Virus genome (UHGV): UHGV-0441209
Strand: one strand, 5' to 3'
Source of the DNA: a virus
Length of the DNA: 41,109 bases
This document shows, piece after piece, positions 1,386 to 30,200 of the stretch. The stretch's first letter is position 1, and the number at the start of each line of letters is the position of its first letter. The translations under genes and the position numbers were made by a program. The notes under the pieces are model-generated. The model had not been told where the DNA came from, did not search any database, and worked only from the letters and a program-made list of their open reading frames with translations.

Positions 1386-1907
1386 ATGAAATTTGAAAAG
1401 ATGAAGTTATCAGAACTACGACCTGCTGAATATAATCCTAGGGTTGAATTAAAGCCAGGCATGGAAGAATACGAGAAGCTTAAACAATCCATTTTAGAAT
1501 TTGGTTTTGTTGATCCTCCCATTTTTAATAAAAATACAGGAAACTTGGTTGGTGGACATCAACGCGTTACCGTTGCAAAAGAATTGGGCCTATTTGATGA
1601 GATAGAGGTTTCTGTGGTTGATTTACCATTGAATAAAGAGAAAGCTCTAAACATAGCTTTAAATAAGATTTCTGGAAATTGGGATGAAGATAAACTAACA
1701 GAATTACTTAATGAACTAACTGCAGATAATTTGGAGTTAACAGGGTTTGACAACGAAGAATTAGAAAATTTAATTGAAGATGCTGACATTCCAAATTTTG
1801 AACCAGGTAGTATTAATGACCAAGGAGATTTGACGAAACTTGAACCGAAATTTGTTAAATGCCCTTGTTGTGGAGAGGAGTTCGATTTAAGAGATGTTGA
1901 AAGTTGA
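1386..1907 (+). CDS. ParB/Srx-fold nuclease-domain protein with C-terminal CxxC zinc ribbon
   Basis: N-terminal ParB-like motif (KLSELRPAEYNPR ... GGHQRVTVAKELG). C-terminal CPCCGEEF. Confidence 0.6.
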   Translation: MKFEKMKLSELRPAEYNPRVELKPGMEEYEKLKQSILEFGFVDPPIFNKNTGNLVGGHQRVTVAKELGLFDEIEVSVVDLPLNKEKALNIALNKISGNWDEDKLTELLNELTADNLELTGFDNEELENLIEDADIPNFEPGSINDQGDLTKLEPKFVKCPCCGEEFDLRDVES

Positions 1908-2502
1908 TTGGGCCACTCATGAAGCTACAAAGTATGCTTGCACGCACTTTCATTACAGCAAAAGTGTGCCTGTTGGAAAGCTCATTAAAATAGGAGCATG
2001 GGAAGATGGCCAATTTATAGGAGTAGTAATTTTTAGTAGAGGTGCAAATAAGAGCATAGGAAGCCCATATGGATTAGAACAAACAGAATGCTGTGAACTA
2101 ACTAGGGTTGCTTTAACCAATCACAAGTCGTTTGTATCTGAAATTTTGGCCAAAGCAATTAAGTTCCTAAAAGAATTTAATCCAAGCATGCAATTAATAG
2201 TAAGCTATGCAGATACGGACCAAAACCATCATGGAGGTATCTATCAAGCAACAAACTGGATATATACTGGAAAGACAGATGGGGAACGCTATTTCATTGT
2301 TAATGGAAAAAAGACACATCCTAAATCTATTCATGCTAAGTATGGGACAGGATCTCAAAGGTTAGAATTTTTGCATAAACATGTGGATCCAAAAGCTTCC
2401 ATTTATGAATCAGAAGGTAAACATAAGTATTTAATGCCACTAAATAAAAAGATTCGTAAAAAAATCATTAAATTATCAAAACCTTATCCAAAAGCTAAAT
2501 AA
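1894..2502 (+). CDS. hypothetical protein, possible Mom-like (acyltransferase-fold) DNA-modification enzyme
   Basis: Overlaps the ParB-like gene. Conserved-looking block VSYADTDQNHHGGIYQATNWIYTG resembles, from memory, the SYxDP..H.G.IY.A.NW.Y.G core of phage Mom-family proteins. The assignment is tentative. Confidence 0.3.
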   Translation: MLKVDWATHEATKYACTHFHYSKSVPVGKLIKIGAWEDGQFIGVVIFSRGANKSIGSPYGLEQTECCELTRVALTNHKSFVSEILAKAIKFLKEFNPSMQLIVSYADTDQNHHGGIYQATNWIYTGKTDGERYFIVNGKKTHPKSIHAKYGTGSQRLEFLHKHVDPKASIYESEGKHKYLMPLNKKIRKKIIKLSKPYPKAK

Positions 2503-3446: not shown

Positions 3447-4250
3447 ATGGCTAGAAAAAGAGATCCACGTCGTGACCAGGCTAAAGAAATTTGGTTAAAG
3501 TCAAACGGCAAAAAGGTTCTTAAAGAATTAGCTAATGAACTAAATGTTTCGGATTCTCAAATAAGGAAATGGAAATCGATAGATAAATGGGCTGATGAAT
3601 TAAAAGGTAATGTTACCAATGCAAAAGGTAACGTTACTAATCAAGGAGGCGCTCCTTTTGGTAATCAGAACGCAGTAGGCAACAAAGGTAATAGCCGGGC
3701 CTCGCCACCACTTGGTAATAAGAACGCTATTAAAACAGGCGAATACGAAACAATATTTGCCGATATGTTATCTGATGAAGAAAAGGACATCTATTCTAAT
3801 CTGAATGATGATCCTTTTTTTATTTTGGAGGAAGAAATAAGAATCCTAAAAATTCGTCAATATAGAATGCTTAAACGCATCAAAGATGCAGAGGTTGGCT
3901 TAAACGATGAAGAAGTTGAACGTTTGCAGCAGCTTCGGAAAGTCAAAGAGCCATCGGTGATTGATGGAAAAATGGTCACTGTCAAGAGAGAAGTTTTAAA
4001 AGATGTGCAAGTAACTCGTAAAACATTTAGAAAACTAGATGACATTTTGGCTATTGAGGAAGCATTGACAAGAATTAGCAATCAGTTAACAAAGGCTATT
4101 AAGCAACAGAATGCTTTGCTAGCAAATGATGCCAAATTACAACTATTGAAGGTTCAAACTGAAAAAGTTAAAGCTAGTTTAGATGCTACAAATGGAGACA
4201 TGGATATGCCAGTTTTCATCGATGATATATCAGGTGATGAATATGAGTAA
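3447..4250 (+). CDS. terS: terminase small subunit
   Basis: N-terminal HTH-like region, then G/N-rich repeats (GNVTNAKGNVTNQGG...GNKGN...GNKNAIKTGEYE) typical of Gram-positive phage TerS. Lies immediately upstream of and overlapping terL. Confidence 0.7.
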   Translation: MARKRDPRRDQAKEIWLKSNGKKVLKELANELNVSDSQIRKWKSIDKWADELKGNVTNAKGNVTNQGGAPFGNQNAVGNKGNSRASPPLGNKNAIKTGEYETIFADMLSDEEKDIYSNLNDDPFFILEEEIRILKIRQYRMLKRIKDAEVGLNDEEVERLQQLRKVKEPSVIDGKMVTVKREVLKDVQVTRKTFRKLDDILAIEEALTRISNQLTKAIKQQNALLANDAKLQLLKVQTEKVKASLDATNGDMDMPVFIDDISGDEYE

Positions 4251-5526
4251 AAAATTATCTGAATTTCTTCCTAAAGCATTTCATACTACTTGGAAGGTAG
4301 CATTAAACTCAAATATATTACATGTTGTTGAAAAAGGTGGCCGTGGGTCAGGTAAATCATCTGGCATAGCACACATAATCGTTCAATTGATTATGAGATA
4401 TCCTGTAAATGCTGTGGCCATTAGATATGTTGATAATACGATTGAGCTATCTATTTTTGAACAGATTAAGTGGGCCATTGAAGAGCAAGGTGTGTCTAAG
4501 TATTTTAAAGTAAATAAAAGTCCTATGAAAATCACCTATAAGCCTAGGGGTAATTATATTGTTTTTCGTGGCGCACAGAACCCAGAAAGGATTAAGTCAT
4601 TAAAGGATTCAAGATTTCCATTTGCTATAGCTTGGATTGAGGAATTAGCCGAGTTTAAAACTGAAGATGATGTAAAAACCATAACTAACTCATTGCTACG
4701 TGGTGAATTAGCAGATGGTCTTTTTTATAAATTTTTTTATTCGTACAATCCTCCTAAGCGACGACAATCATGGGTTAATAAGAAATATGAATCTAGCTTC
4801 CAACCTGAGAATACTTTTGTTCATCATTCAACATATAAGGATAATCCATTCATAGCTCAAGCATTTATTGAAGAAGTTAATGCCACGAGAGCTAAGAATC
4901 CGAAACGTGCTGAGTGGGAGTATGACGGCAAAGCTATTGGTTCAGGAGTTGTTCCGTTTGATAATTTACGAGTAATAAAAGGTTGTATAACTGATGAAAT
5001 GGTAACTAACTTTGATAATATCAGAAACGGTCTTGACTTCGGCTATGCAACTGATCCGTTAGCGTTCGTTCGATGGCATTATGATAAAAAGAAAAATGGT
5101 ATCTATGCTATTGATGAGATATATGGTGTGAAAATTAGTAATAGGGAATTAGCTAAAAAAGTAAAAGCAAAAGGATATGAAGCTGATAGGATTGGTGCAG
5201 ATTCGGCTGAACCAAAATCGATAGCTGAGCTTATTAATGAGCATTCCATAAAGAAACTATATGGAGTGAAAAAGGGACCTGATTCAGTTGAATACGGGGA
5301 AGGATGGCTTGACGATCTAGACTTCATTTGTATAGACCCTTTGAGAACACCAAACATAGCACATGAATTTGAAAACATTGATTATCAAACTGATAAAGAT
5401 GGCAATCCTAAGCCAAGATTAGAAGATAAAGATAATCACACAATCGATGCTACGCGATATGCATTTAGCGATGATATGAGAAATATAAAAGTAAGCATTA
5501 CGAATAAAGTTAAATTTGGATTTTAA
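4243..5526 (+). CDS. terL: terminase large subunit (ATPase/nuclease)
   Basis: Walker A VEKGGRGSGKSS near the N-terminus and a C-terminal nuclease-type acidic motif (DKDNHTIDATRYA). The ATG at 4243 overlaps the terS stop (ATGAGTAA) with AGGTGA upstream. The ORF track extends it to 4183. Confidence 0.8.
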   Translation: MSKKLSEFLPKAFHTTWKVALNSNILHVVEKGGRGSGKSSGIAHIIVQLIMRYPVNAVAIRYVDNTIELSIFEQIKWAIEEQGVSKYFKVNKSPMKITYKPRGNYIVFRGAQNPERIKSLKDSRFPFAIAWIEELAEFKTEDDVKTITNSLLRGELADGLFYKFFYSYNPPKRRQSWVNKKYESSFQPENTFVHHSTYKDNPFIAQAFIEEVNATRAKNPKRAEWEYDGKAIGSGVVPFDNLRVIKGCITDEMVTNFDNIRNGLDFGYATDPLAFVRWHYDKKKNGIYAIDEIYGVKISNRELAKKVKAKGYEADRIGADSAEPKSIAELINEHSIKKLYGVKKGPDSVEYGEGWLDDLDFICIDPLRTPNIAHEFENIDYQTDKDGNPKPRLEDKDNHTIDATRYAFSDDMRNIKVSITNKVKFGF

Positions 5527-6967
5527 GAGAGGTGATATTGTGTCAATAGTAGTTAATAGACAGATAGCTGGCGATTTGAATAAACCTTCAGCTGAACTTC
5601 TTAATTTTTGTATCAACAAACATGTGGAAGAGTTATTAAGATTACAAAAACTATCAGATTATTATGATGGTAAACATGATATTTTAAAACGAACAAAAGA
5701 AAATGAAGGAGCACCTAATAATAAAGTTCTAATCAATCATGCAAAATATGTTGTTGATATGAATGTAGGCTTTATGGTAGGTAATCCAATTTCATATGTT
5801 GCAGAGTCAGATAAAAATATTGGGCCTATTTTAGAAGCTTACGATCGGGTAGATATAGTCTCTCATGATACTGAACTAGAGAAAGATTTGTCTACATTTG
5901 GCGTTGGATATGAGCTTGTATATTTGAAAAAGACTAAGGATAATGATGCTACACAGCTAGAAATCAAATGTATTGATCCAAGAGGTATCTTTTTAGTGAC
6001 AGACGATACAGTAGACAAAAATCCTTTATTTGCCGTTCATTATCAGCCAGTGTTAACACTTCAAGGGGGGATAGATCATTATGTAATTAAGTACTATAAC
6101 GACAACAGAGTGATAACCTATCATGCTAAATCAAGAGGATCTGGTGAGTACTTGTTTATAAATGCTAAACCACATTATTTTAAAGCAGTTCCGGTGATTG
6201 AATACCGAAACAACGAAGAGAAGCAAGGAGACTTTGAACAAGCTATATCATTAATTGACGCTTACAATCTACTGCAATCTGATCGATTAAATGATAAAGA
6301 AGCTTTTGTTGACGCAATTTTATTCATAAGAGGGTTTATGTTGGAAGATGGAGATGGTGAAAAGTTAGCAAAAGAAAAAATGCTTCAAACAGGTGCGTTG
6401 CCAAGTGAAGTAGATGCTGGTTATCTTACTAAAGAATTAAATGAAGACGGAGTGAATCTTTTAAGATCAGCAATTCTAGATGATATTCATAAGATTACGT
6501 ATGTGCCAGATATGAATGATGAAAAGTTTTCAGGTAATGTTAGTGGAGAAGCGATGAAATATAAATTGTTTGGCTTGCTACAACTCATGTCTGTTAAATC
6601 AAGATACATGATTAAAGGTTTGAGGAAACGATTGGAACTATTTGAAACCATTCTAAAAGTTAAAGATAATTCTATTGATGCTCAAGGAACAAAAATCAAG
6701 CTTAAGCCTAATTTACCTGTCAATACTAGCGATATTATAAATCAAATCGTTAGCGCTTATCAAGCTGGCATCTTGCCCCTTAAAGTTCTTTTGGGATGGT
6801 TGCCTGATATAGACGATGTTGATGAGGTTCTAAAACAGCTTAATACTGAAAAAGAGAAAGCTATTGAGCTCAATCAGAAAGCGTTAGGTGTACAAGCTAA
6901 AGATAGCCATAGCGATTTAGATAAAGGTTCTGAGGAGGATAATTACGATGATTACAGCAATATTTAA
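5516..6967 (+). CDS. portal protein
   Basis: 483-aa ORF directly after terL. Size and position are typical of SPP1-like portals. The real start may be the GTG at 5543, after AGAGAGGTGA. Confidence 0.7.
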   Translation: MDFKRGDIVSIVVNRQIAGDLNKPSAELLNFCINKHVEELLRLQKLSDYYDGKHDILKRTKENEGAPNNKVLINHAKYVVDMNVGFMVGNPISYVAESDKNIGPILEAYDRVDIVSHDTELEKDLSTFGVGYELVYLKKTKDNDATQLEIKCIDPRGIFLVTDDTVDKNPLFAVHYQPVLTLQGGIDHYVIKYYNDNRVITYHAKSRGSGEYLFINAKPHYFKAVPVIEYRNNEEKQGDFEQAISLIDAYNLLQSDRLNDKEAFVDAILFIRGFMLEDGDGEKLAKEKMLQTGALPSEVDAGYLTKELNEDGVNLLRSAILDDIHKITYVPDMNDEKFSGNVSGEAMKYKLFGLLQLMSVKSRYMIKGLRKRLELFETILKVKDNSIDAQGTKIKLKPNLPVNTSDIINQIVSAYQAGILPLKVLLGWLPDIDDVDEVLKQLNTEKEKAIELNQKALGVQAKDSHSDLDKGSEEDNYDDYSNI

Positions 6968-7259
6968 AAAGGAAGATAATCAGTATGTAAGTTATTCCAT
7001 TTCAGGACATGCAAACTTTGCCCCAAAAGGACAAGATATTATTTGTGCTGGTGTATCAGCTCTATATATAGCTGTGACTAATGTATTGATAAAGCAACAT
7101 GCCGCAACGATTGATGTTGATGGATCTATTCAGTTAGGTATTATCAAAGATTCTCAGTATATAGTGACTGTTCTTTATGAAAACTTATGCGAAATAGCAA
7201 AAGAATATCCAAATCATATAGAAATAGTTAATCGTGATGAAAAATCAGGAGCTAATTAA
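6948..7259 (+). CDS. prp: Prp-family (DUF464, ribosomal-processing cysteine protease-like) phage protease
   Basis: 103 aa, MITAIFKKEDNQ...SISGHANFAPKGQDIICAGVSAL. The His...Cys arrangement and size match the Prp/YsxB family. It sits between the portal and the minor head gene, as in staphylococcal and streptococcal phages. Confidence 0.6.
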   Translation: MITAIFKKEDNQYVSYSISGHANFAPKGQDIICAGVSALYIAVTNVLIKQHAATIDVDGSIQLGIIKDSQYIVTVLYENLCEIAKEYPNHIEIVNRDEKSGAN

Positions 7260-8633
7260 ATGGCTAAAAAAAAGAAACAGGACGAACAAACATACTGGCA
7301 ATTACGAAATATTAAAGCGGAAAAAAGAATTAATGATGGGGCAAAAGCGCTAGAGGATAAATTAATAATAGCCTATCGTCAAGCACAATACTACTTGACT
7401 AAACAAACCCGAAAGCTCTTTGATAGGTCAAAAAAGCGTACAGGGTTAGATGAAAAAGAAGCAAGGAAATTGCTGAACGAAACTGTATCCCCTTCGGAAC
7501 TTGTAAAGTTAAAGGTCTTGTCTGAACAAATAAGTAATACTACTCTACAAAAAGAAGCCAAGAAAAAGTTAACCAGTTTAGCATTTAAAAAACGAATAAC
7601 TAAAGCTGAGGACTTAAAAGCCAAGTCTTTTTTAGTTTCTAAACAAATTGCTAATGTACAACTAGAAAAGCAAACAGAGTTCTATATCGATGTTATTCAT
7701 GAATCCTATCGTGAAGCAACTGCTGAATCAGTTATTCGACAAGCTAAAGAAAATGCTAAGAACGGCCTTGTAATTGAAGTATGGAATAAAAAAGGTTATC
7801 AGTTTAAAGAGTTATCGACTAGATACACAAAGAACATCCTTGATAGTCATTGGCATGGATCAAATTATTCTAAACGTTTGTGGAGTGATACTGAAGCTTT
7901 AGCAACAAGGCTAGAAGCGTTGTTCACAGTTGAGTCAATGACAGGAATGTCAGAGTTTGAAATGGCTAAGACAATAGCTAGAGAGTTTGACCGATCTATT
8001 GGTGTTGCAAGGCGTTTGATTCGTACAGAAGCGAATTATATGTCAAATCAAGCGAAACTTAAAGCATGGCAAAATAGAGGCATAAAATACTATATGCTTG
8101 TCGCAGTTTTAGATTTGAAAACTTCTAAAATCTGTAAAAATAAAGATCATAAAGTCTATTTAGTTTCCAAAGCGGTTGTTAATGGGGCTAACGGAACATA
8201 TCCTCCATTCCATCCCTGGTGTAGAACAATTGCCATTATCTATAGTAAACGAATATTGAACCTTCCTAGGGAAGCTATAGATCCAATTAGTGGCGATACA
8301 ATGCCTATCAGAGGTGCAACTACTTATAATGAGTGGATGGATAAGCTTAAAGAAAAGTATCCAGAAGAAAAGATAGCCTTGCAAAAAAAAAATATTAGGG
8401 TTGTGATTTATTTGGATTTTAGAGAATTGAAACGCAAGAAAGAACGTGGTGTTAGTAACGAGGAGTTTATGAATAAATCGAAAGAATTCTTTAAAGATGC
8501 AGACAGTATCATAGTTGTAGGAATGGACAAAGACGGCTACATCAGTACGTTTTACACTCAATTGAGTACAACGCAGGTTATTGGTATGGTTGAAATTGCT
8601 AAACAGCAGTTAATACAAGAGGCTGAGGTATAG
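7260..8633 (+). CDS. minor head / head morphogenesis protein (SPP1 gp7 / Mu F-like)
   Basis: 457-aa ORF after portal and Prp, the conserved position. Basic N-terminus. Confidence 0.6.
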   Translation: MAKKKKQDEQTYWQLRNIKAEKRINDGAKALEDKLIIAYRQAQYYLTKQTRKLFDRSKKRTGLDEKEARKLLNETVSPSELVKLKVLSEQISNTTLQKEAKKKLTSLAFKKRITKAEDLKAKSFLVSKQIANVQLEKQTEFYIDVIHESYREATAESVIRQAKENAKNGLVIEVWNKKGYQFKELSTRYTKNILDSHWHGSNYSKRLWSDTEALATRLEALFTVESMTGMSEFEMAKTIAREFDRSIGVARRLIRTEANYMSNQAKLKAWQNRGIKYYMLVAVLDLKTSKICKNKDHKVYLVSKAVVNGANGTYPPFHPWCRTIAIIYSKRILNLPREAIDPISGDTMPIRGATTYNEWMDKLKEKYPEEKIALQKKNIRVVIYLDFRELKRKKERGVSNEEFMNKSKEFFKDADSIIVVGMDKDGYISTFYTQLSTTQVIGMVEIAKQQLIQEAEV

Positions 8634-8919
8634 ATTAAACTTAATTAATTATTTTACTAACAGTGGTTAAATATATCATTTTAAAAGAATAGAAAACATA
8701 AGATCAACTACAACATGATTTAGTTTTTATTATATAGAAGTAGTCACAGACGTTAAAGACTTGGCTATGATTAATAATAATTGAACCTCAGGTTATAAAC
8801 TGATAGAAACGAAAGCTCAGCAACTGCTGGGCTTTTTATATGTCCAAGCGTGATGACGTTAAAAGCTCCGGAAGTGCAAGCATTTATCCACTTTAAAAGA
8901 TATGGAAGGAGTACTAATT

Positions 8920-9570
8920 ATGGAACAAAAAAAACTGTTGCTATTAAATCTACAATTCTTTGCTGAAAAAGATGAAACAGATATTCCAGACGGTTCTGAA
9001 ACATCCAAAAAGTTGAATGTAGATGAGTTGAGCGATGAAGAAATTACAGCAATTAAAGAAAAATTTGGTTTTAAAGATGACAAAGAAGTTGATTCTATTG
9101 TCAAAAGCAAAAAGTCACGTTGGCAGAAAGAGCTCGAAGAAGAAAAAAATGAAGCTGCTCGTTTAGCAAAACTTAGTGAGGAAGAACGACAAAAAGAATT
9201 ACTCAACAAAGAGAAGTCAGATTTCGAAAAGGAAAAAGAAGCATTTAGACAGGAACAATTATTTGTAGAAAAAGGTAACCAGTTGCAGTCAATCGGAATT
9301 AGCAAAGAATTAGCTTCGCGTATTAAAGGTGATACAGCAGAAGAAATTTTAGAAGATGTCAAAACGTTTAAAAAGGCTTGGGACGAAGCGTTAAAAATTG
9401 CTGTTGACCAGGCACTGTTGAGTTCGGTTGATTCACCGCTAGGATCGAATGCATCTATTCCTGACATAAACCCTTTTGCGCCTGAAACTTTAAACCTTAC
9501 AGAACAAGGAAGATTGCTACGAGAAGACCCAGAAAAAGCTAAAGCTTTACAAGCATTAGTTAATAAATAG
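8920..9570 (+). CDS. scaffolding protein
   Basis: Acidic, coiled-coil-rich, K/E-rich, immediately upstream of the capsid gene. GGAAGGAG ribosome binding site before the ATG at 8920. N-terminus is MEQKKLLLLNLQFFA|EKDE, a Prp cleavage motif. Confidence 0.7.
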   Translation: MEQKKLLLLNLQFFAEKDETDIPDGSETSKKLNVDELSDEEITAIKEKFGFKDDKEVDSIVKSKKSRWQKELEEEKNEAARLAKLSEEERQKELLNKEKSDFEKEKEAFRQEQLFVEKGNQLQSIGISKELASRIKGDTAEEILEDVKTFKKAWDEALKIAVDQALLSSVDSPLGSNASIPDINPFAPETLNLTEQGRLLREDPEKAKALQALVNK

Positions 9571-9585
9571 AAAGTAGGAGAAAAA

Positions 9586-10623
9586 ATGAAAAAAAGTTTA
9601 ATTAAAATGAATTTGCAAATATTTGCAGCGAAAACGAAGATCGAAGATGTCATCGTACCTGAGGTATTCAATAGTTATGTTATTGAACGTACAGCTGAAT
9701 TATCAGCATTGTATCAGTCAGGTATTGTTGTGAAAGACCCAGAACTAGATGCGTTAGCAACTGCTGGTGGTAAGCTGATTAACATGCCGTTTTGGCAAGA
9801 CTTAACTGGTGAAGATGAAGTGTTATCTGATACAGATTCTTTAGAAACAGATAAAATTACTGCTAGTCAAGATGTCGCTGCTCTTTTAATGCGAGGTAAA
9901 GCATGGAAAGTAAATGATTTATCTAAGGCTCTATCTGGGGATGATCCTATGCGTGCGATCGGTGATTTGGTCGCTGCTTATTGGGCACGTCGTCAACAAG
10001 CTACTTTGTTAAGCGTCTTAAAAGGTGTGTTTGGAGCAGCTTCTACTAAGATGAATGAAAATAGTTTAGATATTTCAGGCGAAACTGGTAATGATTCAGC
10101 GTTTACTGGCGAAACATTCTTAGATGCATCTTATAAACTAGGTGATGCCGAAGAAAAACTAACTGCGATCGCAGTCCATTCATCTGTTTATGCGAACTTA
10201 CGTAAGCAAAACTTGATTGAATTCTTATTAGATTCTAACAACACGAAGATTCCTACTTACATGGGAAAACGTGTAATTGTTGATGACGGAATGCCAGTAT
10301 CTGGAGATGTTTTTACATCCTATATTTTCGGGCAAGGTGCTATTGGTTTAGGTAATGGGGCAGCTCCTGTTCCTACAGAAACAGACCGGGATGCATTGGC
10401 TGGAGATGATATTTTAGTTAACCGTCAACACTTCTTATTGCATCCACGCGGAGTGAAATTTACAAATAAAACTGTTACGGGCTCATCACCTACGAATGCA
10501 GAATTAGCTACAGGAGGAAACTGGGAACGTGTTTATGAGTCTAAAAATGTTCGTATTGTTCAATTTAAGCATAAACTTTGGGTTCCTAAAACTGTTATTC
10601 CTGGTGGAGGAACGGGCGAATAA
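9586..10623 (+). CDS. major capsid protein
   Basis: 345 aa, after the scaffold. AGGAG ribosome binding site. N-terminus is MKKSLIKMNLQIFA|AKTK, a Prp cleavage motif. Confidence 0.75.
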   Translation: MKKSLIKMNLQIFAAKTKIEDVIVPEVFNSYVIERTAELSALYQSGIVVKDPELDALATAGGKLINMPFWQDLTGEDEVLSDTDSLETDKITASQDVAALLMRGKAWKVNDLSKALSGDDPMRAIGDLVAAYWARRQQATLLSVLKGVFGAASTKMNENSLDISGETGNDSAFTGETFLDASYKLGDAEEKLTAIAVHSSVYANLRKQNLIEFLLDSNNTKIPTYMGKRVIVDDGMPVSGDVFTSYIFGQGAIGLGNGAAPVPTETDRDALAGDDILVNRQHFLLHPRGVKFTNKTVTGSSPTNAELATGGNWERVYESKNVRIVQFKHKLWVPKTVIPGGGTGE

Positions 10624-10636
10624 AGGGGTAATCTTT

Positions 10637-10975
10637 ATGGATAAAGAAGAAGTAATCAAGCACACAAAAGCACTTGTTGTTCGACTTGGAATTGATGAGA
10701 CTGAATCTGAAAAAATCAAAGGAATGTTAGAGGATGCTATTGTTTTAGTTCTTGATTATACCAATAGAGAAAAAATGATAGACAAGCTATACTATTACGC
10801 TCGTCAACTAGTAATAATCACTTGGAATCAAGAAGGGAACGAGGGAGAGACTTCACGCTCAGAGGGTGGTGTCTCTCAAAGTTTTATTACAGATATTCCT
10901 GAAAAGCTAAAATCTGGATTGAATAACTATCGCATAGGAAAGGTTGTGAAATACTATGCGTCTAAGAAAACGTAA
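10637..10975 (+). CDS. head-tail connector protein (gp6-like)
   Basis: Small ORF (MDKEEVIKHTKALVVRLGIDE...) after an AAGGGG ribosome binding site. Position after the capsid gene. The ORF track's 10529 start lies inside the capsid gene. Confidence 0.5.
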   Translation: MDKEEVIKHTKALVVRLGIDETESEKIKGMLEDAIVLVLDYTNREKMIDKLYYYARQLVIITWNQEGNEGETSRSEGGVSQSFITDIPEKLKSGLNNYRIGKVVKYYASKKT

Positions 10976-11297
10976 TTTGGTTGTTGCCTACTTGAAAAAA
11001 CGTCATCTTGAAAAAGATGATGAAGGAAATGACGTTGTTACCTATTCAAGTGAGTTCAATGAACTACACATGAATATTCAGTCTGCGGGTGGACAAGTAG
11101 CAGCTACAATTTATGGTCAACATTTACCTTATATCAAACTCTGTAAATATCAAGGAGATTTGTTAAAGCCAAATAGAAATGAAAAAGATGGCATTTGTTT
11201 ATATGTTAAACCAGAAAATGATCCAGATTATGAGATTGAATCAATTCAGCCTTTCTCTTCTCATTTAAATATCACATTAAAGAAAAGAGGAGTGTAA
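10956..11297 (+). CDS. head closure / head-tail adaptor protein
   Basis: Position in the head-tail joining block; 113 aa. Confidence 0.45.
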   Translation: MRLRKRNLVVAYLKKRHLEKDDEGNDVVTYSSEFNELHMNIQSAGGQVAATIYGQHLPYIKLCKYQGDLLKPNRNEKDGICLYVKPENDPDYEIESIQPFSSHLNITLKKRGV

Positions 11298-11836
11298 TGG
11301 GTGTTGAGATTAGAGGCTTAGACCGCCTTAAACGTAAAACCAAGAAAGCGACAGAGTTAATATCTGATGCAGCATGGGATGCAACTTTTGAACTTACAGA
11401 ATTGATTCAGGGAGCTGCAGAACTACGCTTGGCTTCCAGCATTAAATACGGAAGTGGTGAACTGTCAGGAAGTTTAAAAAATGAGGTTGTAGTTGATGCG
11501 AGTGGTCATCTTGTCGGCCGTGTCTGGTCAGATAAAGAACAAGCAATTTACAGAGAGTTTGGTACTGGGCAAATTGGAGAAGCAAGTTCTAAAGACATTC
11601 CGACTGGAATAATGCCTGTTTATTCGCAGAAACCTTGGTTTATCCCGGCTGAAAAAGTAGCAATAGACTTAGAAGCTATGTATGGTATTCCAAAAATTAC
11701 GATTCAAGGCCAAGATTTTTTCATAACTAAAGGTCAGCCCTCGAGACCGTTCTTGTATCCGTCACTTCAAGAAATGATTGAACAAGCTTCAGAAATATAT
11801 ATAAAGCATGTTAAAGAAAGGCTGAGGGAATTATGA
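11297..11836 (+). CDS. HK97 gp10-like tail component
   Basis: 179 aa, in the head-tail joining block; translationally coupled (ATG overlaps the upstream stop). Confidence 0.45.
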   Translation: MGVEIRGLDRLKRKTKKATELISDAAWDATFELTELIQGAAELRLASSIKYGSGELSGSLKNEVVVDASGHLVGRVWSDKEQAIYREFGTGQIGEASSKDIPTGIMPVYSQKPWFIPAEKVAIDLEAMYGIPKITIQGQDFFITKGQPSRPFLYPSLQEMIEQASEIYIKHVKERLREL

Positions 11837-12195
11837 ATAAGATTGACTTGAAACCTATTGTTTATCAATTACTTACACAAGTTAAAGAGATTAAGAAAGT
11901 TGCAACTGATTATCCAAGTAACTGGACCTCATTCCCTTCCGCGATATATAGAACTAGCTCACAACCAAAAGAAATCGATTCGCAAAAAAAAGAGTTACAG
12001 ACAACTTGGATGATTACTATTGAGTTATATGGAAATACTAGTTTGACTGCATTGACGTCATTAGTTATAGAGAAGTTTAATTCTATAGGATTTACAGGTA
12101 CTAGTAAAGATGCAAACACAGCTGATATGCATCGAGTTATCATTGAACTAACTGGTGTAGTTGACAATGTAACAAAATATGTTTATAAAAAATGA
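11833..12195 (+). CDS. tail completion / tail terminator protein
   Basis: 120 aa, immediately upstream of the major tail protein. Confidence 0.4.
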   Translation: MNKIDLKPIVYQLLTQVKEIKKVATDYPSNWTSFPSAIYRTSSQPKEIDSQKKELQTTWMITIELYGNTSLTALTSLVIEKFNSIGFTGTSKDANTADMHRVIIELTGVVDNVTKYVYKK

Positions 12196-12214
12196 AAATT
12201 TGGAGGTAGCGACA

Positions 12215-12673
12215 ATGAAAAAATTAGATTTACAACTATTTGCTGGAGAACCAGCATTTGAAGGGCTATTATCAAAAGGCACTAAGTTGTCATACAAAGA
12301 TGGGGCAACTTCAAAAGATATCGCAGCAGTAAAATCCATTCCAGCATTAGGAACAGACCCTGAAAAAGTAGAAGTGACTCACTTGGGTTCAGAAAAAAAA
12401 GCATATATTAAAGGATTACAAGATAGTGAAAGCTTAGAATTTGCTATCGTTTATCAAGGAACAAACTTCAATGATATTCATACTATGGTAAAATCTGGCA
12501 AATCATTTGATTTCACGATTACCTATCCTGATGGATTAACAGCAACTTTTTCAGGAGAACCAGATTATAAATTTGATGGAGCAGAAGTCAATCAAGCTAT
12601 TGGTTTTAATTTAGTTGTAGTAGTATCCAAAGGACCAGATTTTACACCTGTCACTGCTCCAACAACAAAATAA
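12215..12673 (+). CDS. major tail protein
   Basis: GGAGGT ribosome binding site. N-terminus is MKKLDLQLFA|GEPAFEG, a third Prp motif. Followed by a strong terminator, a typical major-tail-protein expression signal. Confidence 0.65.
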   Translation: MKKLDLQLFAGEPAFEGLLSKGTKLSYKDGATSKDIAAVKSIPALGTDPEKVEVTHLGSEKKAYIKGLQDSESLEFAIVYQGTNFNDIHTMVKSGKSFDFTITYPDGLTATFSGEPDYKFDGAEVNQAIGFNLVVVVSKGPDFTPVTAPTTK

Positions 12674-22370: not shown

Positions 22371-22599
22371 TTGGAAATCAAGAATAAAAAATAAACAATT
22401 CTGGTTGTCTCTTATTCCTGCAGTTTTGCTAGTTATTCAAGTAGTTGCAGTTCCTTTTGGGTATAAATTTCAAATTGATGTGATTAATCAGCAACTGCTA
22501 GATGTTGTCAATGCAGTGTTTGTTGTATTAACTATTTTAGGAATTGTGACAGACCATACAACGCCTGGTTTATCAGATAAAAAGGAGACAAATAAATGA
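22364..22599 (+). CDS. holin
   Basis: 78 aa, two TM helices ([18 protein letters not shown]; [15 protein letters not shown]) and a charged C-terminus. Immediately upstream of and overlapping the endolysin. Confidence 0.65.
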
Positions 22600-23897
22600 A
22601 AAAGAAAATTTTAGCAGGAGCGCTTGTCGCTCTGTTTTTTATGCCTACTGCTGTATTTGCCGCAAAAGGTGACCAAGGCGTTGACTGGGCGATTTATCAA
22701 GGTGAACAAGGTCGTTTTGGCTATGCGCATGATAAATTCGCTATTGCCCAGATTGGTGGCTACAATGCTAGCGGTATTTATGAACAATACACATATAAAA
22801 CGCAAGTAGCAAGTGCTATTGCTCAAGGTAAACGTGCGCATACCTATATTTGGTATGACACTTGGGGAAACATGGACATTGCGAAAACAACAATGGATTA
22901 CTTTTTGCCACGTATTCAAACGCCTAAAAATTCCATCGTTGCATTAGATTTTGAACATGGAGCGTTGGCTAGTGTTCCAGATGGATATGGAGGATATGTA
23001 AGTTCAGATGCCGAAAAAGCAGCAAATACAGAGACAATTTTGTACGGTATGCGCAGAATCAAACAGGCTGGCTATACTCCAATGTATTACAGCTATAAGC
23101 CATTTACACTAAATCATGTAAACTATCAACAAATCATCAAAGAGTTTCCTAATTCTTTATGGATTGCTGCGTATCCTATCGATGGTGTGTCACCATATCC
23201 ATTGTATGCTTATTTCCCAAGCATGAATGGTATTGGCATTTGGCAATTCACATCCGCTTATATTGCAGGTGGTTTAGATGGTAACGTAGATTTAACAGGA
23301 ATTACGGATAGTGGTTATACAGAAACCAATAAACCAGAAACGGACACGCCAGCAATAGATGCAGGTGAAGAAATCGAAAAAACACCGAATTCTGATGTTA
23401 AAGTTGGTGATACCGTCAAAGTGAAATTTAATGTCGATGCTTGGGCAACTGGTGAAGCTATTCCGCAATGGGTAAAAGGAAACAGCTATAAAGTACAAGA
23501 AGTAACTGGAAGCAGAGTATTGCTTGAAGGTATCTTGTCATGGATTAGCAAAGGCGATATTGAATTATTGCCAGATTCAACAACTGTTCCTGACAAGCAA
23601 CCAGAAGCAACCCATGTGGTACAATACGGCGAAACATTATCAAGTATTGCTTATCAATACGGAACAGACTATCAAACCTTAGCTTCGTTAAATGGATTGG
23701 CCAATCCAAATCTTATTTACCCTGGACAAGTTTTGAAAGTCAATGGATCAGTAGTAAGCAACGTTTATACAGTCCAATACGGTGATAATTTATCTAGCAT
23801 TGCAGCTAAACTTGGTACGACTTATCAAGCTTTAGCACAACGAAACGGGTTAGTTAACCCTAACTTGATTTATCCAGGGCAAACCTTAAACTATTGA
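22596..23897 (+). CDS. endolysin: signal peptide + GH25 muramidase + SH3b-like + 2x LysM
   Basis: N-terminal [25 protein letters not shown] is signal-peptide-like. GVDWAIYQG...FAIAQIG...AHTYIWY...VALDFE are GH25-like blocks. Two C-terminal LysM repeats ([28 protein letters not shown]...PGQVLKV and [29 protein letters not shown]...PGQTL). Confidence 0.8.
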
Positions 23898-26584: not shown

Positions 26585-26605
26585 AACATATCTCCGAAAT
26601 ATCTA

Positions 26606-27181
26606 TTATAAGTCTAACAATTTCTGTTTCTTTTTATCAAATTCCTCTTGAGAAAGAATCCCCATATCTAAAAGTTCTTTTAATTTTTTTAAATTATCAA
26701 ATTGGTCTATTGCAGTATCACTTGATGTTTGTGTTTCTATGTTATCCAATATATAGTTTAAACCACCTAAAATTTCCTTTGCGGTGTTTGCCATTTGCTT
26801 ATACATGAATTTTGACTTGTCAATTTTAAAAGTTATTAGCTTTATGAACTTAGTAGGTTTAGGACTATTTTTAACGTGAATCATTATATCTAATTGGGAG
26901 CAATAATCTTTATCTTCTTTTTTTATTTTTGATGCACCGGTAATCGCAGCACCTGAAGTTCCAAATAGTATTCCGCCTAATGCTGCTCTTCCTAAGCTTA
27001 TGCCTCCATGAGTAACTTGATTTCCATCTTCGATTAGTTCAAAGCTGATTAAATCAGTATAATTAAAAATTTCACTTTTATATTTAAATAGTTTTCTTGC
27101 TTCATCTATTTTTATAGGGCCGTAGGAGCTAGTTTCTGTAAATTCAATATCATCTTTCTTTTTATGTTTGAATAAACCCAT
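26606..27181 (-). CDS. SHOCT-domain protein (N-terminal PH-like domain + Gly-rich segment + C-terminal SHOCT)
   Basis: C-terminal LKKLKELLDMGILSQEEFDKKKQKLLDL is a SHOCT motif. AAAGGTGGA ribosome binding site before the internal Met (MGLFKHKKKDD...), so the track's 27307 start is probably an over-extension. Confidence 0.5.
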   Translation of the reverse strand: MGLFKHKKKDDIEFTETSSYGPIKIDEARKLFKYKSEIFNYTDLISFELIEDGNQVTHGGISLGRAALGGILFGTSGAAITGASKIKKEDKDYCSQLDIMIHVKNSPKPTKFIKLITFKIDKSKFMYKQMANTAKEILGGLNYILDNIETQTSSDTAIDQFDNLKKLKELLDMGILSQEEFDKKKQKLLDL

Positions 27182-27394
27182 AATTTTTATCCACCTTTCT
27201 TCAAATTTTCTTATTCTTCCAGTATCATTTATCCATTCTTGGAATGAATAAATATTTCTTCGGTAGACTGTTTGCTGACATCTAATATTTTTTCGACTTC
27301 TTTCCAAACTATAACGAACAGTCCGACTTATTAATTTAAGTTAATTTTATCATTTAATAAAGATTTTACAAAGAGAAATATTAAATACATAAAA

Positions 27395-27634
27395 TGACCA
27401 TACTTTGACCATACTTATCAGAAAAAAAGAGTGAAAATGAAGAAACCATAATTGATATAAATGTTAATTTAGAAAAGATAAGATAAGTTAACGATTGTCA
27501 GAAAATAAAAATCTAAAAGTATCAGTTTATCCAGTAGCTAACTAATGTAATAGCTCAAGCCTTTGTTTATCAAAGGTTTGGGCTTTTTTTGTTGGTTTCA
27601 GAAAAAATTGACCATACTTTTGACCATACTTATT
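27395..27634. repeat. Putative attP region: four direct copies of TGACCATACTT (27395, 27406, 27611, 27623) flanking about 190 bp, adjacent to the int 3' end
   Basis: The repeats TGACCATACTTTGACCATACTTAT and TGACCATACTTTTGACCATACTTAT were read directly. This is the typical arm-type site architecture next to a tyrosine integrase. Confidence 0.5.
27553..27597 (+). terminator. Rho-independent terminator within the putative attP region
   Basis: GCTCAAGCCTTTG-tttat-CAAAGGTTTGGGC then TTTTTTT. Confidence 0.55.
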
Positions 27635-28797
27635 CAAAACCCGATGTAGTTAGCTAATTTTTCAGTAGTCACTTCTTTTCTATCATCTGTTAAATGTGTG
27701 TAGGTGTCTAACGTAGTCTTTATATTAGCGTGCCCGAGACGTTCTTGTACTTCTTTATGATCAGCGCCAGCATTGTATAACAGTGAGGCGTGCGTATGTC
27801 TAAATCCATGTAAGCCTATATTAGGTAAATTTGCTTTTTTTTGATATATCTTATATCTTTCTGTAATGGATTGATTAATAGTGAACTCATTAGAGTCATT
27901 AGTAAAAATTCTTGAAGGTTGAGTGAAACCCAACTTAAAAAGAAACTTCTTCTGTTCTGATCTCCATTTCTTAAGACACTCTAAAGTGATTCTATCTAAT
28001 ATGATTATTCTATTTGATTTTTTTGTTTTTGGGGTGGAGGATACATAATACGTATCCGATTTTGTAACGGTTTTATTTATTTGCAATTCTCCTGTCTCTA
28101 AGTTTAAATCATCCCAGGTTAGTGCTAGTAATTCTCCTATTCTACATCCACTGAAAGACAATAATCTAAATAGTGTATAATCTCTGATAGTTATATAATT
28201 ATTTTCTTGCGGCTGTTGATGTATACACTCTAAAAATTTTTGTAATTGGTCTTTGTTGTAAAATTTTATTTTCGTATCTTTAGGATTTGCAGTTTCCTTA
28301 TTCTTTGGGATGATTACATTGGTTGTTGGGTTTTCGGCGGTAACTCCCATATTTATAGCAAACTTAAAAACTTTATTCATATAATTTAAAAATAAAGGGT
28401 ATTGTTTTGATGTCCCGTTAGTGTGCCAGTTATTAACTATTTTTTGACAATAAGCTGTATTTATTTTTGCTATTTCAATTTTTCCGAAGTGAGGAAAAAT
28501 ATGTTTATTGAAAATTATGTTAGTACGAGAATAGCTACTATCTTTAACTGTATTTTTGTAGTTTTCAAGCCACAATACTGCTATCTCCTGAAATGTTATA
28601 GAAGAAGATTGCTTTATTCCGTTACGTTCAATCTCCATCTCTAATCTTGCCAATGCAATTTTTGCTTCTTTTTGTGTTTTAAATCCTCTCTTGGTAGTGT
28701 ATTTCTTTTTTTTAGTTAGTGGATCAATCCCAAGATAGGTTTTGAAGTACCATGCTTTTTCGCCGCTTTTCTTTTGATATTGCCTAATCATTGCCAT
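27634..28797 (-). CDS. int: tyrosine-type site-specific integrase
   Basis: C-terminal catalytic region HGFRHTHASLLYNAGADHKEVQERLGHANIKTTLDTYTHL (R...HxxR...Y). N-terminal SAM-like domain. Confidence 0.9.
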   Translation of the reverse strand: MAMIRQYQKKSGEKAWYFKTYLGIDPLTKKKKYTTKRGFKTQKEAKIALARLEMEIERNGIKQSSSITFQEIAVLWLENYKNTVKDSSYSRTNIIFNKHIFPHFGKIEIAKINTAYCQKIVNNWHTNGTSKQYPLFLNYMNKVFKFAINMGVTAENPTTNVIIPKNKETANPKDTKIKFYNKDQLQKFLECIHQQPQENNYITIRDYTLFRLLSFSGCRIGELLALTWDDLNLETGELQINKTVTKSDTYYVSSTPKTKKSNRIIILDRITLECLKKWRSEQKKFLFKLGFTQPSRIFTNDSNEFTINQSITERYKIYQKKANLPNIGLHGFRHTHASLLYNAGADHKEVQERLGHANIKTTLDTYTHLTDDRKEVTTEKLANYIGF

Positions 28798-28799
28798 TT

Positions 28800-29039
28800 T
28801 TATCTCTCCCAGTATTTTTTACATAATTCATTTATTTCTTCAAAGCGCGGATGATTTTTATTGTTATCCCTAAATCTTATAGTTGTTTGTAAGTTGTTGA
28901 TTAGATAATCAAAAATTACCCCACGATCGTGTTCTGTTAATTTTTCTTTCGAGAAAAATTCTGCCCCAGCCAACGATTCACTAATCATTTGTAGTACTAA
29001 TTTCTTTTCATTTTTTGTTAAATCATTAAATGTTATCAT
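28800..29039 (-). CDS. hypothetical protein (79 aa) in the lysogeny module
   Basis: ORF between int and the repressor operon; no domain recognised. Confidence 0.4.
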   Translation of the reverse strand: MITFNDLTKNEKKLVLQMISESLAGAEFFSKEKLTEHDRGVIFDYLINNLQTTIRFRDNNKNHPRFEEINELCKKYWER

Positions 29040-29040
29040 A

Positions 29041-29280
29041 TTATTTTCCCTCTATATTTAATTCTATATCACTTTTTTGAACTCCAAATAGTCCTATAGA
29101 CAATTCGTTGTTGCTTGTAATTTTATACCCTTTTGATACTCGAAAAACAGGTGCGTGGAATGGAAGTAAATTTCCTGAACATAAAGTGGCCCCGATAAAG
29201 TGCACCTTTGTTTCTGGTGGCACTGTATTTAGTATGGAAATCAGTTCCTTGGCAGTTAAAGCTTTGTTAAAGTCAGTCAT
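29041..29280 (-). CDS. hypothetical protein (79 aa) in the lysogeny module
   Basis: ORF; no domain recognised. Confidence 0.4.
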   Translation of the reverse strand: MTDFNKALTAKELISILNTVPPETKVHFIGATLCSGNLLPFHAPVFRVSKGYKITSNNELSIGLFGVQKSDIELNIEGK

Positions 29281-29343
29281 TTTAATTACTCCTTTTGAAC
29301 ATACGTTCTTTTTTTGTGAAATTAATAATAGCCGAATGGCTAT

Positions 29344-29772
29344 TTAAAAGTATCTTGATAGTTCGTGTGGTAATCCTAAATAATCCATAATTTGAAATTT
29401 TGTTAGTCCGTGCATGATTGATTGATCTTGCATATGCAGAAGTAATTTCATAGCGAGAGAATTTGCTTCACATTCCATTTTAGAAACAAATGTATCTAAC
29501 CCTAAAGAACGGTAAAAAGGCGTACTAGCACCTTTGTGCAGTTTTATATGACTGAATTCATGTAATATCACAAACTTTTGATAGTGCTCAGGCCAATTTG
29601 CGTTAACAATAATCGTATGACACCTGTTGTTAGTTTGTGTACAACCTCCAGTTTCATCATCTATATCAGCATAAAGTATTTTACAGTTCGCCTTTTTTAC
29701 CAAGTCGTAGACACTGCTAGGTTGGTATTTTGTGACGATTTTATCGAATTGATTTTCGACATAATTATTCAT
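29344..29772 (-). CDS. ImmA/IrrE-family zinc metallopeptidase
   Basis: HEXXH motif (ILHEFSHIKLH), located directly downstream of the XRE repressor. This is the usual ImmR/ImmA pairing. Confidence 0.75.
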   Translation of the reverse strand: MNNYVENQFDKIVTKYQPSSVYDLVKKANCKILYADIDDETGGCTQTNNRCHTIIVNANWPEHYQKFVILHEFSHIKLHKGASTPFYRSLGLDTFVSKMECEANSLAMKLLLHMQDQSIMHGLTKFQIMDYLGLPHELSRYF

Positions 29773-29786
29773 AATACCAACCCCTA

Positions 29787-30200
29787 TTAGTTTCTATAAT
29801 CTTTACGTGTGAATTTCTTTTTGGCTTCTTCTTTGTTCATTTCCATCGCAGTACGTATAGCAATTAAAAGACGGTCTTTTTGTTCTTGAGTAGCTGGTTC
29901 ACCGTAAAAATTAAGATTTTCGCCATTAGCTATACCTTCAATTAATTCTTCTGCTTGAATAGCAATATCCTTCTTTTCTTTATTGGATAACTCATAATAT
30001 TTTTTCTTTTCAGTACGACCAAGTAAATAGTCAGTGGAAACATCAAAATAATCTGCTACTTTTTGTAATTTGTCAGACTGAGGGCTTGTTTTATCCCAAC
30101 GGTAAAGAGAATTTTCCCCTATACCAACTTTGCTAGCAAGTTCTTTGAGCGTGATTCCTCTTTGTTTAGCAAGTAACTTTATTCTTTCCAACGTATTCAT
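29787..30200 (-). CDS. cI-like XRE-family repressor
   Basis: N-terminal HTH (LAKQRGITLKELASKVGIGENSLYRWDK), divergent from the cro-like gene. Confidence 0.75.
   Translation of the reverse strand: MNTLERIKLLAKQRGITLKELASKVGIGENSLYRWDKTSPQSDKLQKVADYFDVSTDYLLGRTEKKKYYELSNKEKKDIAIQAEELIEGIANGENLNFYGEPATQEQKDRLLIAIRTAMEMNKEEAKKKFTRKDYRN

Follow-up and report, generated by a model that had tools for sequence, protein, structure and literature searches.

A phage-encoded Prp protease and L27-like leaders on head and tail proteins of a phiFL3A-like phage

Introduction

It is an open question why Firmicutes equip ribosomal protein L27 with a leader that needs to be removed, and for what reason some phages have copied it. 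The L27 leader is cleaved by a chromosomal cysteine protease, Prp (YsxB, MEROPS C108), and in Staphylococcus aureus the host Prp also cleaves the scaffold and capsid proteins of phage 80alpha (PMC5744158). The protease family, the motif that it recognises and its action on these two proteins are established, and the motif has been noted once on a tail protein, in phage phi13. The 2025 and 2026 preprints of the laboratory that discovered the system call the phage leaders 'especially intriguing' and mention only staphylococcal phages that use the host enzyme. Here we analyse UHGV-0441209, a viral genome of 41,109 nucleotides (hereafter the window, meaning this whole stretch of DNA). A first-pass annotation made from its sequence alone took a 103-residue open reading frame (ORF) among the late genes for a Prp of the phage's own, and pointed to an L27-like motif at the start of the scaffold, major capsid and major tail proteins. 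The locus raises the question of whether a phage can bring along its own enzyme to process its own head and tail. We find a phage-borne, head-plus-tail version of the 80alpha-type maturation system that is well supported computationally, in which the phage Prp probably removes the leaders of the scaffold, capsid and tail tube by cutting between Phe and Ala.

Results

The 103-residue ORF matches the Pfam family PF04327 (Peptidase_Prp) over its full length (E=1.1e-20, 74.1 bits against a cut-off of 27, profile positions 1-90 of 90) and PHROG 4478, 'peptidase' (E=4e-29). Its AlphaFold model, built on 38 homologues (predicted local distance difference test, pLDDT, 86.6), adopts the two-layer alpha/beta Prp fold. 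The top Foldseek match of the model is 7kld_B, S. aureus Prp from the Prp-peptide complex 7KLD (template modelling (TM) score 0.81, probability 1.0), and all 12 PDB matches at E<1e-3 belong to the Prp family, the next match having an E value of 0.6. A profile made from 38 phage-type Prps matches the Prps of S. mutans, S. aureus and S. pneumoniae at E values of 4e-15 to 2e-13. The predicted catalytic pair, His21 and Cys33, lies within SGHANFAPKGQDIICAGVSA and is invariant in two alignments, one of 5 and one of 38 sequences. Invariant columns among the 38 aligned phage-type Prps are G20, H21, A22, G28, D30, C33 and S37, which align with G21, H22, A23, G29, D31, C34 and S38 of S. aureus Prp. The activity of the S. 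aureus enzyme needs Gly21, His22, Asp31, Cys34 and Ser38, and Ala23, Gly29, Asp31 and Ser38 contact its substrate (PMC9261936). As judged from the alignments and the predicted fold, the ORF is a full-length Prp-family cysteine protease with all residues required for activity, in agreement with the first-pass annotation, which had assigned it to Prp/DUF464 and named the His/Cys dyad as the feature to check on the profile.

Flanked by the portal and minor head genes and not by rplU (L21) and rpmA (L27), the gene counts as a phage paralogue within the family and not as the ribosomal-operon orthologue. As had been proposed, the phage bears its own Prp. Its gene is part of the late morphogenesis operon, whose order is portal, the 103-residue ORF, minor head, scaffold, major capsid, adaptor/neck, tail tube, tail chaperone and tape measure. 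The start of the Prp gene overlaps the end of the portal gene (6967) by 20 nucleotides, which suggests coupled late expression, and the minor head gene begins at 7260. Identity is 32-42% among phage Prps drawn from five host genera and 19-35% between these and the three solved chromosomal Prps, and the phage enzymes have a shorter loop after helix 1 than these three. A recent capture of a host prp gene is unsupported, given the low identity to the three solved chromosomal Prps (the E. faecalis enzyme was outside this comparison) and the compact loop common to the phage copies. An HK97-type prohead protease was also considered and rejected, as no head-module ORF has a Pfam domain of the herpesvirus-protease fold; a match of the minor head protein to a PHROG 'head maturation protease' family (phrog_595) was set aside because it overlaps stronger 'minor head protein' families.

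Database labels for these genes vary. The homologue of the Prp gene in Enterococcus faecalis phage phiFL3A, gp45, is labelled 'ribosomal protein, domain DUF464' in GenBank and 'peptidase' in RefSeq, and the phage in which the gene is annotated was published in 2010. NCBI automatic annotation names phage-type Prps of prophages (P0011, P0035, P0072, P0106 and others) 'ribosomal-processing cysteine protease Prp', which probably misstates their role, given the gene order in every examined locus.

The three structural proteins were identified as the first-pass annotation had named them: the scaffold by DUF4355, the major capsid protein as Gp13-like, and the major tail protein by its fold (Table 1). 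The tail-tube identity is secure in the light of the model (pLDDT 80.7), which Foldseek matches to the lambda gpV tail tube with a TM score of 0.69 and a probability of 1.0; the precomputed Pfam domains of its homologues are PF16460/PF08813. The starts of two of these genes needed correction. The longest ORFs begin at 8902 (scaffold) and 12179 (tail tube), whereas ribosome-binding sites (GAAGGAG upstream of 8920 and GGAGG upstream of 12215) and the RefSeq annotation of phiFL3A, in which gp47 has the same scaffold start, place them at 8920 and 12215. The capsid start at 9586 is preceded by AGGAG.

In the six-frame translation of all 41 kb, the pattern LQ[FILM][FL]A has five matches. Three are on the plus strand, at nucleotides 8950, 9613 and 12230, each in a real gene and each N-terminal; the other two are in non-coding frames of the minus strand. 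By chance, as estimated by shuffling each protein, 0.0105 motifs would fall within 30 residues of the N-terminus and 0.08 at any position, against the three observed; the 62-gene set used for this kept an antisense ORF in the scaffold's place and so holds two of the three motifs. The DNA of the capsid leader core (9607-9630, aatttgcaaatatttgca) is partly palindromic, so LQIFA can also be read in a minus-strand non-coding frame, which is a coincidence and not a second motif. The minor head protein (7260-8633) has no leader motif.

All three proteins have, no more than about 20 residues from Met1, the Prp substrate motif: (K/L)x(N/D)LQxF and then a small residue, Ala or Ser. The site cores, with an apostrophe at the predicted cut, are NLQFF'A at residues 14/15 of the scaffold, NLQIF'A at 13/14 of the capsid protein and DLQLF'A at 9/10 of the tail tube. 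The shared motif noticed at first reading thus stands, while its distance of 13-17 residues from Met1 does not, the leaders being 14, 13 and 9 residues long. The position of the cut also had to be moved. The first-pass annotation placed it after Ala, to leave EKDE, AKTK and GEPA; characterised Prp cuts L27 at MLKLNLQFF'ASKK and the 80alpha proteins at NLQFF'ADQS and NLQHF'ASNN (PMC9405229, PMC5744158), that is, between Phe and Ala, so the predicted mature ends keep the Ala and are one residue longer. In the tail-tube model, residues 1-20 have a pLDDT of about 53 and lie outside the fold.

To see how widely the gene and the leaders occur together we turned to other phages. A word-based search of proteins with the single sequence gave 5 matches, and a profile search was used instead. 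In IMG/VR, a scan with an alignment of five Prps brought up at least 466 contigs of viruses that encode a Prp relative. We assembled 85 loci, made up of 80 fetched loci, four reference phages and the window. Near start codons in these loci, a relaxed leader pattern has 187 matches on the gene strand versus 2 on the opposite strand. The 85 Prps form 28 clusters at 90% identity, and 26 representative non-redundant lineages were counted. The scaffold carries a leader in 26/26 of these Prp-carrying lineages, the capsid protein in 18/26 and the tail tube in 19/24, and in about half all three proteins are tagged. The tail leader had been described as less commonly reported; this holds for the literature, where phi13 accounts for one sentence (PMC5744158), yet among Prp-carrying phages the tail leader is common.

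Scaffold, capsid and tail tube are all tagged in Brochothrix phage BL3, in Oenococcus phage phiS13 and in three further Prp-carrying loci (L088/L089, L094 and L095), and Lactococcus phage TP712 has the leader on scaffold and capsid only. The order portal, Prp, minor head is common to TP712, BL3, phiS13, a Latilactobacillus phage and loci L088, L094 and L095, and its longer form, continuing through scaffold and capsid to the tail tube, is kept in phages of Lactococcus, Brochothrix, Oenococcus, Latilactobacillus, Carnobacterium and Enterococcus. Two further pattern matches were rejected as substrates, LRLQKL'S at residue 41 of the portal protein and ..IMVQVL'A at residue 28 of the product of the gene after the tail chaperone in BL3-like phages, since neither is N-terminal or has the NLQxF core.

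The P2 residue of the leaders in Prp-carrying phages is L in 23 cases, R in 11, K in 10, M in 8, H in 4, F in 3, Q in 2, and A and I in 1 each. Arg or Lys at P2 in lactococcal, Oenococcus and Brochothrix phages, where host L27 has Leu or Phe, was considered as a sign of a distinct phage specificity, and dropped because the sites in the window are host-like and Leu is the commonest residue. Nor did we conclude that specificity had changed, because the host Prp of S. aureus cuts the LQHF'A site of 80alpha (PMC9405229). The P2 difference is at most a hint of phage-enzyme specificity.

Homologues that lack the leader indicate where the mature proteins may begin. Leaderless capsid and tail-tube homologues start within 0-3 residues of the predicted P1' position. 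Tail tubes of the TP712 type begin MATVAGLLSKG, compared with ...LF'AGEPAFEGLLSKG in the window. Leaderless capsids begin MTTIADLFSQ, compared with ...NLQRF'ADIAELFSQ in phiS13, and the capsids of the Prp-less Bacillus phage 000TH010 and Clostridioides difficile phage phiCDKH01 (52-55% identical) begin MAYTKISDVIVPELFN and MAVTKLSDVIVPELFN, compared with ...IF'AAKTKIEDVIVPEVFN in the window. Close homologues of the tail tube form 117 clusters, with 59% identity or more in all but two; 45 of the clusters have the leader and about 70 have none, the latter beginning M(D/AT/TT)FAGLLSKG, which lines up with the predicted mature end. On the evidence of these alignments the leader is a removable module, gained and lost on three unrelated structural proteins.

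We also compared phages with and without the gene, drawing the comparison from the neighbourhoods of tail-tube homologues and judging absence of Prp by profile search. By this search no Prp gene was detected in three close relatives (L090, L092 and L093), in which either the minor head gene or small unrelated ORFs come next after the portal gene. All three have a tail tube without the leader (MDFAGLLSKG). Overall, 22 of 27 tail tubes from phages with a phage Prp have the leader, versus none of 5 from phages without (including the two Prp-less Bacillus and Clostridium phages), in samples that are not phylogenetically independent. That the tail-tube leader may require a phage Prp is a lead from these sequences and not a rule; the tail protein of the staphylococcal phage phi13 also bears the motif (PMC5744158), the Prp status of phi13 itself lying outside the comparison.

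Two independent contigs of high guanine-plus-cytosine content (L084 and L085) encode an in-frame fusion of the Prp domain with a coiled-coil protein, rich in Gly and Asp, of about 400 residues. The junctions contain cleavage motifs (...ALNLQKF'AEGGDGG; ...DLQLF'A and LDLQRF'AEGAAASGG). The fusion partner has no profile match in either contig and is scaffold-like in composition only; the ORF that follows the fusion is a capsid protein (PF25209) with a leader of its own. From its sequence the product looks like a self-processing protease-substrate polyprotein. Finding the enzyme's own recognition site between it and a scaffold-like partner is strong evidence from context for an action of phage Prp on phage proteins.

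The coordinates are collected in Table 1. Between positions 5500 and 13000, a 350-nucleotide insertion aside, the window is 99.4% identical to phiFL3A and phiFL3B, temperate phages of E. faecalis in the genus Phifelvirus. Relative to phiFL3A, this insertion (8429-8778) extends the minor head ORF from 382 to 457 residues; the sole match of the extra C-terminal stretch of about 70 residues is PHROG 7268 (unknown function), with no Pfam family, and the stretch may be a separate small gene merged by the ORF call. The large terminase is a single intact ORF of 447 residues, and is split in two (gp42 and gp43) in the RefSeq record of phiFL3A, a split that points to a frameshift or an error of sequencing there. 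A 202-residue ORF situated just 5' of the terminase genes matches over its full length the family of Mom, the DNA-modification enzyme of phage Mu; the ORF that precedes and overlaps it has a weak match, under the cut-off, to the ParB N-terminal domain. The minus-strand lysogeny module includes a tyrosine integrase, and this module together with the endolysin indicates that the window is a complete temperate phage or prophage.

Table 1. Features of the window and of the loci compared with it (positions refer to the window unless another record is given).
Feature	Record	Position	Strand	Evidence or remark
Portal protein (SPP1 gp6-like)	window	5516-6967	+	Pfam PF05133 E=5.5e-109; directly 5' of Prp gene
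Ribosome-binding site of Prp gene, GAGGAGG	window	6932-6938	+	read from sequence
Prp-family cysteine protease, 103 residues, phiFL3A gp45 homologue	window	6948-7259	+	Pfam PF04327, PHROG 4478, fold
Minor head protein (Mu F / SPP1 gp7-like)	window	7260-8633	+	Pfam PF04233, PHROG 115; directly 3' of Prp gene
Scaffolding protein, 216 residues from start supported by ribosome-binding site	window	8920-9570	+	Pfam DUF4355 E=2e-19, PHROG 172
Scaffold leader MEQKKLLLLNLQFF, 14 residues	window	8920-8961	+	predicted cut before Ala codon 8962-8964, giving mature AEKDE
Major capsid protein, 345 residues	window	9586-10623	+	Pfam PF20036 Gp13-like; PHROG 247 E=3e-126
Capsid leader MKKSLIKMNLQIF, 13 residues	window	9586-9624	+	predicted cut before Ala codon 9625-9627, giving mature AAKTKIEDVIVPEVFN (AAKTK)
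Major tail (tail tube) protein, 152 residues from start supported by ribosome-binding site	window	12215-12673	+	PHROG 158 E=3e-23
Tail-tube leader MKKLDLQLF, 9 residues	window	12215-12241	+	predicted cut before Ala codon 12242-12244, giving mature AGEPAFEGLLSKG (AGEPA)
Peptides representing the three predicted substrate sites	window			KLLLLNLQFFAEKD, LIKMNLQIFAAKT, KKLDLQLFAGEP
ORF with weak ParB N-terminal domain match	window	1386-1907		E=1e-4
Mom-family ORF	window	1894-2502	+	PF25680 E=2e-45
Large terminase	window	4183-5526
Endolysin	window	22596-23897		GH25 and two LysM domains
Lysogeny module	window	26600-30200	-
Tyrosine integrase	window	27634-28797	-	PF00589 E=2e-27
Enterococcus casseliflavus prophage (L090)	GCA_050352335.1, JBNQWM010000012.1	37142-51561		head module closest to that of the window
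Prp fusion (L084)	IMG/VR 3300029613_000035	7905-9524		Prp Pfam E=1e-14
Prp fusion (L085)	IMG/VR 3300045988_070319	7737-9350		Prp Pfam E=1e-16

Discussion

The gene, its conserved active-site residues and the leaders occur together across many phages, and we infer that the phage enzyme is active and has the scaffold, capsid and tail-tube proteins as its substrates, a reading that we hold to be probable. The late operon would supply Prp alongside the portal and head proteins, and each of the three structural proteins would be made with a leader of 14, 13 or 9 residues that ends in (N/D)LQxF'A and copies the leader of host L27. The phage Prp, probably dimeric like the cellular enzyme, would bind the leader and cut between Phe and Ala, to give mature proteins starting AEKDE, AAKTK and AGEPA. 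By analogy with 80alpha, the leader probably works before cleavage, as a tag for folding, chaperoning or timing, and it may serve assembly rather than act as a trigger of maturation. In that phage the proteins of the procapsid are already cut, and the leader of the scaffold is essential for assembly (PMC5744158).

The most serious competitor is that the host's chromosomal Prp does all the cutting, as in 80alpha (PMC5744158), and that the phage copy is a redundant passenger, or a back-up where host Prp is limiting. Several observations weigh against a dedicated role of the phage enzyme, and some of them favour the host directly. Prp-less relatives with nearly the same head module keep the scaffold leader (L090, L092 and L093, ending NLQFF'A or NLQYF'A), and L090 keeps the capsid leader as well. 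As in 80alpha, host Prp thus very probably deals with the head proteins of these relatives; for head proteins it is probably enough, and the phage copy may be superfluous for them. The three sites of the window (QFF, QIF and QLF) resemble host L27, with no phage-specific specificity evident, and fit the host L27 consensus (PMC9405229, Table 2), the E. faecium L27 site being MNLQLF'AHKK. Phage 80alpha is viable without cleavage of its capsid and scaffold proteins (PMC5744158), and the purpose of the leader may therefore lie elsewhere than in being cleaved. Finally, in the literature that we searched we found no biochemical or proteomic data on a phage-borne Prp, that of this phage included. Against the host doing everything, the gene is kept with an invariant active site in the IMG/VR contigs, from many host genera, which argues for selection on activity; tail-tube leaders occur, in our sample, only in phages that carry Prp; and the fusions of Prp to a scaffold-like protein are sensible only if the phage enzyme acts on phage proteins. 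We consider this host-only reading unlikely.

Removal of the leaders by the phage Prp, our preferred reading, leaves room for the host enzyme, which could probably cut the same sites; the phage copy would then most likely add capacity or control of timing, and it may matter most for the tail tube. Each virion needs hundreds of copies of each of the capsid, scaffold and tail-tube proteins. At this scale a phage Prp may, we speculate, avert saturation of the essential host Prp or permit an extra abundant substrate.

A second alternative, which we regard as improbable, is that the phage Prp chiefly targets host pre-L27 or another host protein, boosting or taking over ribosome maturation, and that the structural leaders are processed incidentally. 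L27 is indeed the cellular substrate of the enzyme family, prophage copies bear the automatic name quoted above, and a different protease, Rrp (SP_1145) of a mobile element, can process L27 in S. pneumoniae TIGR4 (bioRxiv 10.64898/2026.08.10.744006). However, a role directed at the ribosome would be expected early in infection, and the gene sits inside the late head-assembly operon, between portal and minor head, and not among early genes; moreover, phages with Prp have leaders on their own proteins, and some have Prp fused to a scaffold-like protein. That the leaders stay uncleaved as permanent N-terminal assembly or interaction tags, with the Prp-like protein a non-catalytic binder or chaperone, is hardly credible: although in 80alpha the scaffold leader is essential and its cleavage is not (PMC5744158), and Thermotoga maritima TM1457 has a Prp structure and does not cleave L27 (PMC9405229), the phage clade keeps every catalytic and substrate-binding residue without variation, TM1457 lacks the Gly-rich loop in the alignment, and leaderless homologues start at or close to the P1' position.

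The predicted cleavage by the phage Prp places this locus next to several known systems. It shares with 80alpha, the precedent that the first-pass annotation rightly gave, the protease family, the head substrates and the scaffold family (DUF4355, 'Gp46'; gp46 scaffold and gp47 capsid, Wall et al. 2015; Kizziah et al. 2017, PMC5744158), as well as the motif (leaders KLNLQFF'A and LNLQHF'A, 13-14 residues from Met1). It differs in that the protease is phage-encoded and not chromosomal, and in that the tail tube is tagged in addition to the two head proteins. With chromosomal Prp and L27 of Firmicutes it shares the fold, the His/Cys pair, the supporting residues and the motif of F'A with a small residue, and differs in the presumed substrates, virion proteins for the phage Prp and L27 for the chromosomal one. 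Prohead proteases of the HK97 gp4 type are likewise phage-encoded and portal-adjacent and trim structural proteins during assembly, but they have the herpesvirus-protease fold and are unrelated to Prp in fold and catalytic type. HK97-type proteases are packaged and, once within the procapsid, take off scaffolds or delta domains, whereas the phage Prp is predicted to remove a tag of 9-14 residues; we know of no prohead protease that acts on a tail tube.

Rrp also comes from a phage-like mobile element and recognises the L27 leader, but its fold is proteasome-beta/Anbu-like and not that of Prp, and it was found as a rescuer of L27 processing and not in a virion-assembly operon (bioRxiv 10.64898/2026.08.10.744006); it shows that mobile elements can supply processing of the L27 type. 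The capsid-trimming cysteine protease of phage Cp-1 is the only other member of MEROPS clan CR (PMC9405229). It is phage-encoded and trims an N-terminal extension of the capsid protein, a likeness taken from its description only, and differs in belonging to another family, in the length of the extension (about 40 residues) and in that no L27-like motif is reported. In the searched literature we found no description of a phage-encoded Prp, of triple tagging of head and tail, of a leader gained and lost or of a fusion of Prp to a scaffold-like protein, although a mention in the founding paper, Wall et al. 2015, is possible; beyond the papers on S. aureus and S. pneumoniae Prp, that literature contained nothing on phage-borne Prp.

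A broader picture, which we offer tentatively and rather doubt, is that Prp and the L27-like leaders are a portable set that phages of Firmicutes attach mix-and-match to their structural proteins, with a phage enzyme permitting the tagging of the tail tube and the drift of leaders away from the host consensus. The suggestion of drift comes from P2, where many Prp-carrying phages have R, K, Q or H and the four leaders of Prp-less relatives have F or Y.

To the question of why phages copy the L27 leader, the present analysis adds hundreds of phages with a Prp of their own, a leader gained and lost on three structural proteins including the tail tube, a protease fused in some phages to a scaffold-like protein, and a tail-tube tag that in our sample tracks the phage enzyme. 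An inducible E. faecalis prophage with one small gene and three sites makes a tractable system for the role of the leader in assembly. Automatic annotation labels prophage Prp genes as the ribosomal Prp, and prophages may supply a second Prp activity, which is relevant to proposals of Prp as an antibiotic target. If the portable set is real, induced lysogens would hold a second enzyme able to process L27, and this would bear on Prp as a target of antibiotics and on why L27 of Firmicutes has a cleavable leader at all.

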